64,000 nucleotides of DNA from positions 5,422-69,421 of the forward strand of contig JAVBQL010000021.1 in the NCBI GenBank assembly GCA_031549085.1, written 5' to 3'. A model generated the notes under the pieces. It was not told the origin of the DNA and searched no databases. It worked only from the letters and a program-made list of their open reading frames with translations. The DNA is from Spirochaetota bacterium (GTDB taxonomy: Bacteria > Spirochaetota > GWE2-31-10 > MWDO01). Made by a program: the position numbers and the translations under genes. Shown here in pieces: positions 4,477 through 38,470 of the stretch (position 1 is the stretch's first letter; the number at the start of each line of letters is the position of its first letter).

Positions 4477-5466
4477 TTGGAACAGAAAAAAATATTTTTA
4501 CTTACTTTTTTTATTATTATATTTAATATTAATTTAAATAGCAGTGCCCCTCTTTGGATTCAAAATCCAAAAGTAATATATCCTGCTGATGAATACCTCT
4601 CTGCTGTAGGGGAGGGGAGAAATATGGAGGAGGCAAGCTCTAATGCAATTGCCAACATCTCAAAAATATTTGAGTCAAATATAAAGGTAGATAATATTTT
4701 TAATGAAAATACAACTCAAACCAATAGTGAAACAAGCAGAATTATCAATATGAGTGTAAATGTTAGAGTGGCTTCAGAGGGAAAACTCTCTAATATAAAT
4801 ATAGGCGAATTTTGGAATGGAAATGGAAGATACTATGTAATAGCCTACCTTAACAAAAAAGAGACAGCAAAAATATATCAAAATAAAATTGAAAATAATA
4901 ATGAAAAAATAGAGACTTTAATAGAGAATATGGGCAATGATGAGAGGCCATTTGATAAATATTACTATGGAGCACAGGCAGTTTTAGTTGCCAGCGAAAA
5001 TGATAAATTTTATAACTATATGATGCTTCTTTTATCTCCAAATAGCCCACCACCCCTAAAATATAGCTATCAATCTGTAAGTATGGCTATAGGAAAAATG
5101 ATGAAGAAGATATCTATGAAGATTGTTATAGATAAAAAGTATAAAAATGTAGAGCAGAAGATCTCAAAGATCCTAACTGGGCTTGGATTTTCAGTGTCTA
5201 AAAAAGGATGGGTTAATGTTGTCGTTGATGTAAATGAGACACTTTCAGAGTCCAACGGATTTATCTTCTCTAAATATAGCTTTAATATAGATGTAGATGA
5301 TGGTAATGAGACCTTCTTTACCTTTACTAGAAGTGGTAAAGAGGGGCAGATAAATGTTGATAGTTTGAATAGAAAAGTTATCTCAAAGCTTGAGGGATTT
5401 ATTGATAATGAGTTTGAAAAAGAGTTTATTTTAGCTTTTACAAATTCATTGGAGGAGCACAATTAG
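4477..5466 (+). CDS. LPP20-like exported protein
   Basis: P-x-W, YLSAVGEG and A..NAIANISKIF pattern typical of LPP20 domains; TTG start after GGAG. Confidence 0.7.
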   Translation: MEQKKIFLLTFFIIIFNINLNSSAPLWIQNPKVIYPADEYLSAVGEGRNMEEASSNAIANISKIFESNIKVDNIFNENTTQTNSETSRIINMSVNVRVASEGKLSNINIGEFWNGNGRYYVIAYLNKKETAKIYQNKIENNNEKIETLIENMGNDERPFDKYYYGAQAVLVASENDKFYNYMMLLLSPNSPPPLKYSYQSVSMAIGKMMKKISMKIVIDKKYKNVEQKISKILTGLGFSVSKKGWVNVVVDVNETLSESNGFIFSKYSFNIDVDDGNETFFTFTRSGKEGQINVDSLNRKVISKLEGFIDNEFEKEFILAFTNSLEEHN

Positions 5467-32684: not shown

Positions 32685-32851
32685 TGTTGTTTCACTCCAG
32701 ATTAAGTTTGAAAGGGATACTATTTATATGAAAGATTATAATAAAATAAAAGGGATTTGTCAAAAGTAAGAGTGATATGAATATTAAGAGAACAATATAT
32801 AACACTTGACTTTGTTATCATAATTTAGTAAAAAAGGATAGAATCATACAT

Positions 32852-32970
32852 GATTCCTTCGGGGATAGGTGAAACTCCATACCGGCGGTAAAAGCCCGCG
32901 AGTCTTTAAAAAGACAGAACTGATGTGATTTCAGTGCCGACAGTAACAGTCTGGATGATAGAAGGAATGT
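32852..32970 (+). ncRNA. FMN riboswitch (RFN element)
   Basis: TTCGGGG..GGTGAAA.TCC.TACCGGCGGT..AGCCCGCGA...GCCGACAGTAACAGTCTGGATG..AGAAGG upstream of ribD. Confidence 0.96.
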
Positions 32971-36316: not shown

Positions 36317-37691
36317 TTATGGTGTGTCCCATGTAAAGCTTGCTGGAGGATTTGTCCAGTAGTTTGGATCTGTGCCTTTTATATCTCTAATAATCGCAGG
36401 ACCATCTTCTCCTTTATAGATTTTGCTCTTATTTCCATAGCCTCTATAAAGTGCATAGAGATCATTAGCTACAGTGGCTGTTCCATCTTTTGCATATATA
36501 TTGCAGTTTGATATGGTTGCCATAGCTGTAATTGATCCACCGCTCTCAATACCATAAGCATCTCCTGAACTACTATCTTCAACAGCTCCTGTTATTGTGC
36601 CGCCGCTTATGGTAAGTATGCCCCGATTATTTCTAACACCGATAGCAGAACCCACCACACTAGCACTACCATTTGTTCCTGCTATTGTACCACTATTTAT
36701 AGTAGTAGTTCCACTATTATAAATACCACAAGAATAACTACCAACAGTAGTGTTATCTGTTGCTCCAACTATAACTCCACCTTTGATGATAAGGTCTCCA
36801 TTACCATCAAAACCATAAGCAGAACTATCAACAGTTGCACTATCAGCTGCTCCTATTATTGTTCCTCCATTGATGGTACAACCCCCATAACCATTAAAAC
36901 CAGAAGCATTACTAACAGTTGTGCTATCTTTTGCACCAACTATTGTCCCACTATTTATGATAGTAGTTCCATTGCCCATAAGAGCATGGGCCGACCAAGC
37001 AGTAGCAGTGCCGCTTGCTCCTACTATCATACTATTATTGATAGTTATTGTAGAGTTACTTATAATAGTCATAGTAGACATATTATAGAGAGGATAAATA
37101 TAAATAGCATAAGCATCGCTTGTCACCACTCCGCTCTCTACACCCACTATATCACAATTATTAATTGTTAATTTTGTTCCCGTACCATAGATTCCATAGG
37201 CTCTCTCATTGTTATATTTAGCTCCCCTTATATCAAGGTTTTCAAGCACTAGCTCTCCAGCTCTCACTGTTATACGACCAGTATTACTTGCTGTTGCATT
37301 ATCTCCATTTATGGTACTCTTGTCATTGATATCATCTCTTGTCCAAGTAGAGTTGTAGCCGCCCTTTATGGTAGTGCTATATAGAGAGGTGATATTGATC
37401 AACTCACTATATGTTTCCTTTGCTACATAGATGACATTATTTTTAGCTTTTGCCATGCTGACGGCTTTCGATATTGTCTTCACTGGCGAAATTTGAGTTC
37501 CCATATTACTATCATCACCAGCAGTTGATACATAGATTATTGCCTCTTCTGCAACATACTCCTCGCCATCTCCACCCTTGTCATTAACTCCGCCAGCCCC
37601 ATCACAGCCAACAAAAATAGCCATAATAAAAAAAAAACATTGCCAAAGCAATAAAAAAGAGTCCTCTCTTTTTCGTGCGACTGAAATTCAT
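36317..37691 (-). CDS. Beta-helix (DUF1565/pectin-lyase-like) surface lipoprotein, frameshifted at a T10 tract in its signal peptide
   Basis: AGGAGG then ATG at 37691; YVSTAGDDSNMGT..SPVKTISKAV motif; ~27-30 aa TI.(S/G)GTI.GA repeats. With T9 the signal peptide joins the FVGC lipobox in frame. Confidence 0.8.
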
Positions 37692-37870
37692 AAAATTCCT
37701 CCTAAAAAAATAGAAATAATATTTAAACTATAAAAAATATAGTTTTGTCTAAATTTGATAACAAACAAACATTTAATTATTAAAACCAAACATTTGATTA
37801 TCTTTCTACGATAATATTCTACATAGTTCTTGTTTTTTGTTGAGAGACTTATGTTAAAGATTTGATAGGT

Positions 37871-38080
37871 AAAAACACATAAGCCTGCAAAACAAGGGTC
37901 GCACACCACTACTCTTAACCCTACTTAATTCGCTTAAAGAGCAGATAGTCCTTGCAGTGCAGGCTTATCTATGGCTTGTTGAAAACCGCATAGATTTTCT
38001 ATACAGCTTTGCCATTAGCCAAATTTAGTAGGGTTTGAAAAGCAAGGTGTCTATTCTTATATTGAGGTGCGACCCTCTCT
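37871..38080 (-). ncRNA. Candidate structured 5' leader with alternative or pseudoknot helices
   Basis: Perfect helices 38067-38076/37895-37904 (10 bp), 38027-38035/37917-37925 (9 bp) and 37958-37968/37879-37889 (11 bp), plus a 13-bp GU-containing hairpin at 37982-38010. Confidence 0.65.
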
Positions 38081-38168
38081 ACAAAAACCACCATATAAAT
38101 ATGTCTAAATAATAGTTAAATTAAATAACTTTAATAAAACTCCTCGATTTTTTTATATATTATTTAAG

Positions 38169-38197
38169 ATTATATGATTATAATAGAGAAAAATCAA
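38169..38197 (-). promoter_or_regulatory. Sigma70-type promoter for the leader and lipoprotein
   Basis: TTGATT-17bp-TATAAT on the minus strand. Confidence 0.65.
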
Positions 38198-38290: not shown

Positions 38291-38470
38291 ACTTTAGCAA
38301 ATAGATTTCTCTTGTTGTGATATGCATCAAAGATTTTTTTCTTAATTGCGAAGCAATTTCAAAAAAAATTGGCTTGCATATTGCAAAAAAAAGAGAAATC
38401 GAGCGCTAAAGAGCTATTCTTTCTTTTAAAGCCCCTTTTTGAAAAGGGGGGGTGGGGGGTTTAGAAAAAA
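38291..38470 (-). repeat. Dispersed hairpin element, copy B
   Basis: The reverse complement aligns with 34726-34901: C-rich arm, then TCGATTTCTCTTTTTT..ATATGCAAG..GAAAAAATCTTTG.TGCATATCACA.CAAGAGAAATCT.TTT.CTAAAGT. Confidence 0.85.

Follow-up and report, generated by a model that had tools for sequence, protein, structure and literature searches.

A structured RNA element ahead of a lipoprotein gene in a spirochaete genome, and the multicopy family to which it belongs

In the window, i.e. the whole stretch of 64 000 nt analysed here from a Spirochaetota genome, a densely paired stretch lies ahead of a frameshifted lipoprotein gene. A first-pass annotation, made from the letters alone, had read this stretch as a switch-like RNA leader of a class that it could not name. 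The questions raised by the locus are whether it encodes a structured RNA, whether that RNA has relatives, and what it does for the gene that follows. Features of the element are given on the minus strand.

The element and its predicted folds

A sigma-70-like promoter, TTGATT-17-TATAAT (38169-38197), has 10 of 12 consensus matches and is followed by an AT-rich 5' spacer of ~70 nt (38097-38168), typical of subfamily III (see below), that leads to the folded part. The densely paired stretch spans 38096 to 37868, with GUGUUUUU as its 3' end. The 5' hairpin H1 (38046-38092; stems GGUG/CACC and GUUUUUGUA/UAUAAGAAU in the helix list) has an apical stem, GAGG/CCUC, which presents a copy-specific loop, X. 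X is the 5' strand of the outer helix P1 (GAGGGUCGCAC, 38067-38077), and the 3' strand of P1, X' (GUGCGACCCUU, 37894-37904), is inside the domain enclosed by a long 3' hairpin, T1. In the inner helix, AACCCUACU (38035-38027) pairs with AGUAGGGUU (37925-37917). The 5' strands of P2/P3 (38027-38050), with the P3/P2 3' strands AGUAGGGUU and AAGAGUAGUGGUGU (37903-37925), are the counterpart in this copy of the family helix H2. The crossing helix is T1, with its 5' strand AUAAGCCUGCA at 37958-37968 and its 3' strand UGCAGGCUUAU (37889-37879) running into the tract GUGUUUUU (37878-37871). The segment 37871-37889 is thereby an intrinsic-terminator-like end, a GC-containing hairpin of 11 bp and then a U tract. 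T1 is absent from a simple terminator scan because its stem encloses ~70 nt. In the terminator fold, AAGAGUAG pairs instead with CUGCUCUU (37944-37937).

The promoter, the outer, inner and crossing helices and the trailing GUGUUUUU that the first-pass annotation had described are all present, as is the 31-codon ORF (38094-37999) that it saw running through the 5' half of the element. A 13-bp hairpin (38010-37998 with 37994-37982) also exists as described, but the count from the helix list is three G-U pairs and not four. This hairpin is enclosed by GGCU/AGCC in an inserted arm (37973-38020) that is missing from the same-subfamily copies C24 and C29, and it is a copy-specific insertion outside the conserved family core. 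The 3' domain at 37869-37972 (C3:43290-43393) is common to the whole family.

Folded as RNA, the element has a minimum free energy (MFE) of -78.3 kcal/mol, compared to a mean of -57.0 ± 4.5 for 200 dinucleotide shuffles (z -4.78). None of the 200 shuffles folded as well, in agreement with the earlier view that such helices are unlikely by chance. The plus strand of the same stretch gave z -3.35. Two folds are predicted to be nearly equal in energy. Fold A (-77.4 kcal/mol) is closed, with P1 enclosing P2/P3 and a branched centre, and fold B (-78.3 kcal/mol) is open and consists of H1, the 13-bp hairpin and T1 with its U tract. When growing prefixes were folded, fold A was the MFE structure until the T1 3' strand emerged, and fold B was the MFE structure from then on.

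No known class accounts for the element, and the lack of a name in the first-pass annotation was justified. With Rfam 15, no model matched the element at the gathering score and nothing was found at E<=10 on the minus strand of 37865-38100. The sole match in the window was an FMN riboswitch (32851-32970, 108 bits), which is upstream of ribD, ribE and ribBA and is ordinary. At 16 loci with other copies, searched at E<=0.01, there was no family, only one tRNA and chance miRNA-like hairpins. 6S RNA (RF00013), normally encoded by one gene per genome, was rejected, and the 6S gene of this genome is elsewhere (C1:1741-1935, 47.5 bits). c-di-GMP had been suggested as a ligand; c-di-GMP-I/II riboswitches were rejected, as neither the GEMM-I nor the c-di-GMP-II model gave a hit at E<=10 between 37500 and 38600. 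A T-box leader (RF00230) was also rejected, as there was no model match at E<=10 and no aminoacyl-tRNA synthetase or amino-acid genes are found downstream of the copies. A literature search, covering listings and abstracts, found no description of such an RNA family. The element is a member of an undescribed structured-RNA family.

Copies in the genome and homologues elsewhere

With the 236-nt element as query, BLAST gave no match in 40 relatives and detected no further copy within the genome itself, because the family is too diverged for BLAST. A covariance model of the single sequence (R1) revealed a second copy at C28:24226-24429 and found nothing in 60 relatives. A two-sequence model (R2) recovered only the window copy and the sister copy from the genome, and nothing from five family members. 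A scan of metagenomes with the motif TAAGCCTGCANTGNAAGGACT gave nine loci that were motif-only or weak against R2 (19.7 bits) and were taken as chance, and the same scan of contigs of the species genome gave 0 matches.

The sister copy has the same promoter hexamers and spacing as the window copy, folds with z -4.87, and is 157 nt upstream of the gene for a lipoprotein 48 % identical to the one in the window. At that locus (L005 3032-9263, C28:22031-28262) there are three tandem paralogous Thr-rich beta-helix lipoprotein genes, and the RNA copy is found before the last only. Between the two copies, 16 of 67 pairs are changed on both sides and nine compensatory pairs fall in P2/P3. The proportion of cells that pair is 95 %, compared to 41-47 % with partners slid, in an alignment that was fitted to the model and so favours the structure.

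The 3' half of the element recurs many times in the genome, as was seen with an nhmmer profile and a motif search. A covariance model of this half (R3) was built on alignment A5, in which the 3' domains of 36 copies were aligned by sequence alone. At E<=0.01, R3 matched 47 sites in the genome (2.68 Mb), of which 11 had played no part in building it; the score of the window copy was 59.9 bits (E 3e-12). The copies form several subfamilies, which differ by ~45 % in sequence yet keep the fold. The window copy, which groups with C28, C24 and C29 in subfamily III, is a genuine structured RNA and a diverged member of the family.

Promoter-like sites were found before 33 of 37 copies with a strict pattern and before the other four with a looser one, and every copy examined had a sigma-70-like promoter and four helices with compensatory changes. 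A U-rich tail (at least 5 U in 9 nt) follows T1 in 26 of 36 copies. The U tract is absent in 10, including three of the four subfamily III copies, and the window copy has one. The family is a set of self-contained cassettes, in each of which a sigma-70 promoter is followed by a folded RNA (~170-290 nt) and by the terminator-like T1. Several copies are in tandem and several are at contig ends.

In subfamily II, the copies resemble complete small-RNA genes and have a further terminator. This terminator (GCUGCUCCCUUU and a U run, pairing back to GGGAGUGGCAGC; e.g. L018 1810-2150 and L015 3851-3958) lies downstream, and past it there is a long, purine-rich, perfect foldback that scored as miRNA-like hairpins in Rfam. 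The foldback repeat brackets the subfamily II copies. In subfamily I (C4, C6, C16, C26 and C27), seven copies, most of them at contig ends, are near-identical over ~280 nt and their flanks, and the substitutions, always compensated, are concentrated in X/X', H2 and one hairpin. A truncated copy just downstream of a lipoprotein paralogue (L041, C20:276708-276856) has lost the whole core, so that the post-T1 tail follows immediately on its promoter and H1.

When R3 was used to search 20 genomes of the order, matches were found at G018:C136:2546-2643 (42.7 bits, E 1e-7) and G003:C105:23568-23670 (28.3 bits). We regard the first as a convincing homologue, from another family of the same order, and the second as a moderate match, from another genus. 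The G018 element has a TTGACA-17-TATACT promoter, an H1 loop (UUCGCAU) that matches a downstream AUGCGAA, an H2 helix (CACCGUAAA/UUUGCGGUG) and an 18-bp T1 followed by U6, and it folds with z -4.98. A gene for a small histidine kinase follows, its start codon 27 nt past the end of T1 and U6. In the G003 element, P1 is split and comprises 10 bp; the gene that comes next encodes a secreted caspase-like protein and has a T8 run in the signal peptide (L047, ~1640). Both elements are single-copy and are 27-40 nt before the RBS of a co-oriented gene. R3 matches in G008, G019 and G021 (23-28 bits) were without T1 pairs or were bare hairpins, and were not counted. Among 150 genomes of the phylum, searched with stricter filters and 26 candidates scored per genome, there was only a 41-nt partial match (in G132), which was disregarded. 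The known range, one uncultured invertebrate-gut spirochaete and single homologues in two related genera, is so far narrow and the general importance of the family is therefore limited.

Crossing helices kept by compensatory changes

The family helices are H1 (5' hairpin), X:X' or P1 (loop-to-3' pairing), H2 (long-range) and T1 (terminator-like). In 36 copies, the 13 pairs of T1 are paired in 95.1 % of 468 cells and 11 of the 13 are changed on both sides; scores as high as those observed were reached by 0 of 500 shuffles. The most conserved nucleotides of the RNA lie inside the T1 hairpin. A local hairpin, H3, could instead take up the T1 5' strand; it is paired to 84 %, without covariation.

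All four helices were then compared in a MAFFT alignment of 14 subfamily II copies (A6), which was made from sequence only and not fitted to the structure, and was scored with pseudoknot brackets. H1, P1, H2 and T1 are each 92-95 % paired (H1 94.7 %, P1 92.9 %) versus 30-47 % when slid, and double changes affect 6 of 7 pairs in H2 and 4 of 10 in P1. The X segment is copy-specific, yet always complementary to X'. In subfamily III, no relationship in sequence is seen between the P1 cores of different copies, but the two strands are complementary in each (UCGCAC/GUGCGA, GGCGUAU/AUACGCC, GUAGUAC/GUACUAC and CCUUAU/AUAAGG). Support for X:X' comes from this comparison and from A6, and not from a crude score for self versus non-self helices (6.92 versus 6.03, with self on top in 9 of 36), the search window of which catches other helices. 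For H2 the same crude score is supportive (9.68 versus 6.64), and H2 is copy-specific even among near-identical copies of subfamilies I and IV.

With strand-symmetric scoring, G-U outnumber A-C oppositions in the helices by 87:19 (H2 26:1, T1 52:9, X window 9:9), and the binomial p of 1e-11 is overstated as the copies are related. This excess of G-U indicates that pairing was selected in the RNA of the promoter strand. With these counts, the complementarity is not the kind, symmetric on both DNA strands, that marks a REP or MITE.

H1 and T1 cross P1 and H2, and both sets are kept by compensatory changes in all subfamilies. The RNA is therefore a double pseudoknot or a two-state terminator/antiterminator switch. 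Within each of the crossing sets, every helix is 92-95 % paired with double changes, as a two-state RNA would have it; H1 with T1 and P1 with H2 may also coexist as a pseudoknot instead of alternating. The first-pass annotation had offered this same pair of architectures, and as an architecture the proposal stands, given crossing sets with compensatory changes in paralogous copies. The covarying homologues that it called for exist as these paralogous copies, and single homologues are found in two other genera.

If this is correct, the RNAs are an undescribed structured family with a terminator-embedded conserved core and two crossing, covarying helix sets, with paired 'address' segments that are specific to each copy and not shared even by near-identical ones. 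One genome provides dozens of natural variants, which is enough for covariation-based modelling and for the choice of constructs.

Features of the family are found singly in several known systems. The HMP-PP riboswitch (thiS motif) is described as a 'terminator-embedded aptamer' (Atilho et al. 2019, PMC6478431). As in that riboswitch, the most conserved nucleotides are inside the hairpin of an intrinsic terminator and not in a separate upstream aptamer. However, the thiS aptamer is tiny and is found in a classic short terminator before thiamin genes, whereas here T1 encloses ~60-70 nt, two further upstream strands (X and the 5' strand of H2) reach into the T1 domain, the downstream genes share no pathway and there is no Rfam model match.

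T-box leaders and PyrR-dependent pyr attenuators are promoter-proximal, have mutually exclusive helices that include a terminator, and occur in many copies per genome with variable helices. The present family resembles them in having helices that may be mutually exclusive, one a terminator, in its many copies and in the copy-variable helix sequences. However, the GAGUGGCAGC stretch is only superficially similar to the T-box sequence, the UGGN position is not conserved and, unlike T-box and pyr leaders, half of the family copies are without a gene to regulate. The small RNAs Qrr1-5, LhrC1-5 and PrrF1/2 are multicopy siblings of 60-120 nt with conserved single-stranded seeds. They too are paralogous RNA genes that extend from promoter to terminator within a single genome, with some of them arranged in tandem, but here there are 47 copies of 170-290 nt in which the variable parts are internally paired and the conserved parts are in a pseudoknot-like core.

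SPRITE, Correia/CREE and REP/REPIN are terminator-like or palindromic intergenic repeats. They share with this family a high copy number, a position between genes, hairpins with a trailing U tract and an association with another repeat family. In contrast to them, a promoter is present in each copy here, G-U but not A-C is tolerated in the helices on one strand, deeply diverged subfamilies keep the fold, and there are single-copy homologues in other genera. The hok-type mRNAs have three-way complementary boxes (tac/fbi, ucb/dcb). The family is like them in that a word and its complement occur three times (X, X' and X'', see below), and folding upstream could be coupled to the translation start. 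There is, however, no toxin gene, only 3 of 10 copies tested had X'' and the X':X'' pairing is putative, as is its effect.

The copy ahead of the lipoprotein gene

The window copy is co-oriented with a gene for a DUF1565-like beta-helix lipoprotein (36317-37691, minus strand; 444-aa ORF), which has ~17 paralogues spread over the genome, and is 180 nt upstream of the ATG at 37691. A T10 tract (37637-37628) in the signal-peptide region separates the frame of this ATG from that of the 444-aa ORF, and could reflect slipped-strand phase variation or the assembly consensus. Between T1 and the gene there was no other minus-strand terminator-like site. Promoter-like hexamers do occur there, so that the lipoprotein gene may have its own promoter, although the number of sites is at chance level (7 found, 6.3 expected).

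An exact second copy of the X core (GUCGCAC), X'', is found at 37675-37681, in codons 4-6 of the lipoprotein gene, where it is predicted to be unpaired and could pair with X'. The 7-mer of a copy's own X recurs downstream in 3 of 10 copies tested, versus 1 of 90 cross-copy cells. These three, out of the four copies in subfamily III, are the window copy, C28 at -59 (L005 ~5097-5103) and C24 at +11 (a 9-mer, ORF codons 5-7). Unspecified 7-mers shared between the RNA and the downstream region are at chance level (6-10 expected), and only the pre-specified X word is informative. We treat this recurrence as a lead and not as a finding. As X recurs at the first codons, the start of lipoprotein translation may be within reach of X' as well, via X''.

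For context, ORFs downstream of the copies were identified using our own simple caller (>=80 aa), which is not a gene finder. Across the 47 copies, the next ORF is co-oriented for 24 and opposite for 22, and one copy is at a contig end. Only 11 of the 24 are within 300 nt of the ORF, and distances are often 300-700 nt. The downstream genes are unrelated and include genes for lipoproteins, WG-repeat proteins and MCPs, and groEL, dnaX, mraY and hutH. As only 24 of 47 copies face a co-oriented ORF, the family is not generally a leader in this genome. The co-oriented, upstream position does hold for the window copy, the sister copy and the G018 and G003 elements. A leader role for the window copy is plausible because the sister copy precedes a paralogous lipoprotein gene and the two homologues in other genera precede co-oriented genes.

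The DNA of the window is present in an invertebrate gut metagenome, from which it may have come, and in an RNA library from that study a 299-nt contig covers 37822-38120 with 0 mismatches. Its depth (~4.9) is like that of neighbouring genes, and such contigs show neither strand nor ends and could include DNA carry-over. A separate RNA contig (37499-37711) covers the start of the lipoprotein gene, and the uncovered stretches between contigs in this run (X2) are not evidence of RNA ends. RNA run X3 gave nothing for the locus.

The reading that we prefer, to which we give a probability of about 0.4, is that the window copy is a conditional terminator acting as the leader of the lipoprotein gene. 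H1 would form first as the RNA is transcribed from the promoter at 38197-38169. As the 3' strands emerge, the closed fold with P3, P2 and P1 would form, the T1 5' strand would be held in a small local hairpin, and polymerase would read through into the lipoprotein gene. If the closed fold were prevented, H1 would persist, T1 (37968-37879) with GUGUUUUU would form and the transcript would end near 37871. The element would then be an attenuator or riboswitch-like leader, which would act in addition to the T10 frameshift tract. Neither a ligand nor a protein partner nor a regulon logic was found. The first-pass annotation went further and envisaged multi-layer control of one surface protein. Of this, the leader role for this copy is plausible but a bespoke device for a single gene is not, as this is one of 47 copies, 22 of which are without a co-oriented ORF. 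With so many copies the window element is not special to one gene, and if the lipoprotein gene is controlled by the leader together with the T10 tract, as it may be, the leader is a generic cassette of the organism and not a dedicated device.

The same copies can be read in another way, as stand-alone small RNA genes. The product would be a discrete RNA of ~290 nt that always ends at T1, has a compact pseudoknotted fold and acts in trans, e.g. by titrating a protein or by pairing via X' with targets such as X'', and the lipoprotein gene would be a neighbour or a target and not a co-transcript. All subfamilies have their own promoter and terminator-like end, copies occur as tandem pairs, subfamily II has the second terminator, and the alignment shows good pairing of the four helices at the same time. 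The 22 copies without a co-oriented downstream ORF, the separation of the contig at 37822-38120 from that over the lipoprotein start, and the position of X'' in an unpaired stretch by the start codon point the same way. However, the G018 and G003 elements have the geometry of leaders, the link between sister copy and lipoprotein gene has been kept across an old duplication, RNA ends cannot be seen in contigs, and most copies tested lack X''. We consider this reading unlikely, though it comes next after that of a conditional terminator. A lower rank is given to the view that the family has spread as repeated DNA, a selfish cassette with the foldback repeat bracketing many copies, in which case the window copy would be a passenger without a role for the lipoprotein gene and the helices would be kept for the RNA or DNA hairpins of the element and not for the host. 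The 47 copies are all intergenic and randomly oriented to their neighbours, several are at contig ends, as repeats are, and copies of subfamilies I and II are near-identical outside the variable helices, including flanks past the RNA. The bias to G-U, which reflects selection on the transcribed strand and not symmetric DNA palindromes, the retention of the fold across divergent subfamilies, and the single-copy homologues in leader position in two other genera make this improbable.

Two further explanations concern the window copy itself. A 10-bp inverted repeat (AGGGTCGCAC/GTGCGACCCT) flanks a 165-bp segment, and inversion of this segment could drive the lipoprotein gene. A plus-strand promoter-like site (TTGAAA-17-TATATT, 38035-38063) is found within the repeat and the T10 tract makes the gene look phase-variable. 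However, such sites are at chance frequency, and the same pairing belongs to the 47-copy RNA family with its G-U-tolerant, strand-specific helices. No strand-changing joints were present in DNA or RNA contigs, to which we give weak weight as contigs would miss rare forms. We consider an invertible switch very improbable. Even less credible is attenuation by a leader peptide, with translation of the 31-codon ORF selecting between the folds. Though the ORF runs through the 5' half of the element, no Shine-Dalgarno sequence is seen by eye before its ATG, the frame meets a stop after 8 codons in the sister copy and is not conserved, and the copies are separated by indels that are not multiples of three.

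The conditional terminator can also be extended to the family, as a class of 'addressed' riboregulators, which we find doubtful. Within the conserved terminator-embedded core, each of the ~47 cassettes would have an address of its own, X, together with the complementary X', and leader-type copies would have a third copy, X'', at the gene start. One shared signal, read by the core, would then govern termination at T1 as well as access to the translation start in each copy separately, and the divergence of X and H2 between near-identical copies would reflect selection against cross-talk.

Other observations were made near the element. Downstream of a gene for a SpoIIE-type phosphatase, at 38420-38470, there is a C-rich run (CCCCCCACCCCCCC) and a hairpin (CCCCUUUU...AAAAGGGG), and a variant with a TA insertion at 38349-38350 is represented by a DNA contig.
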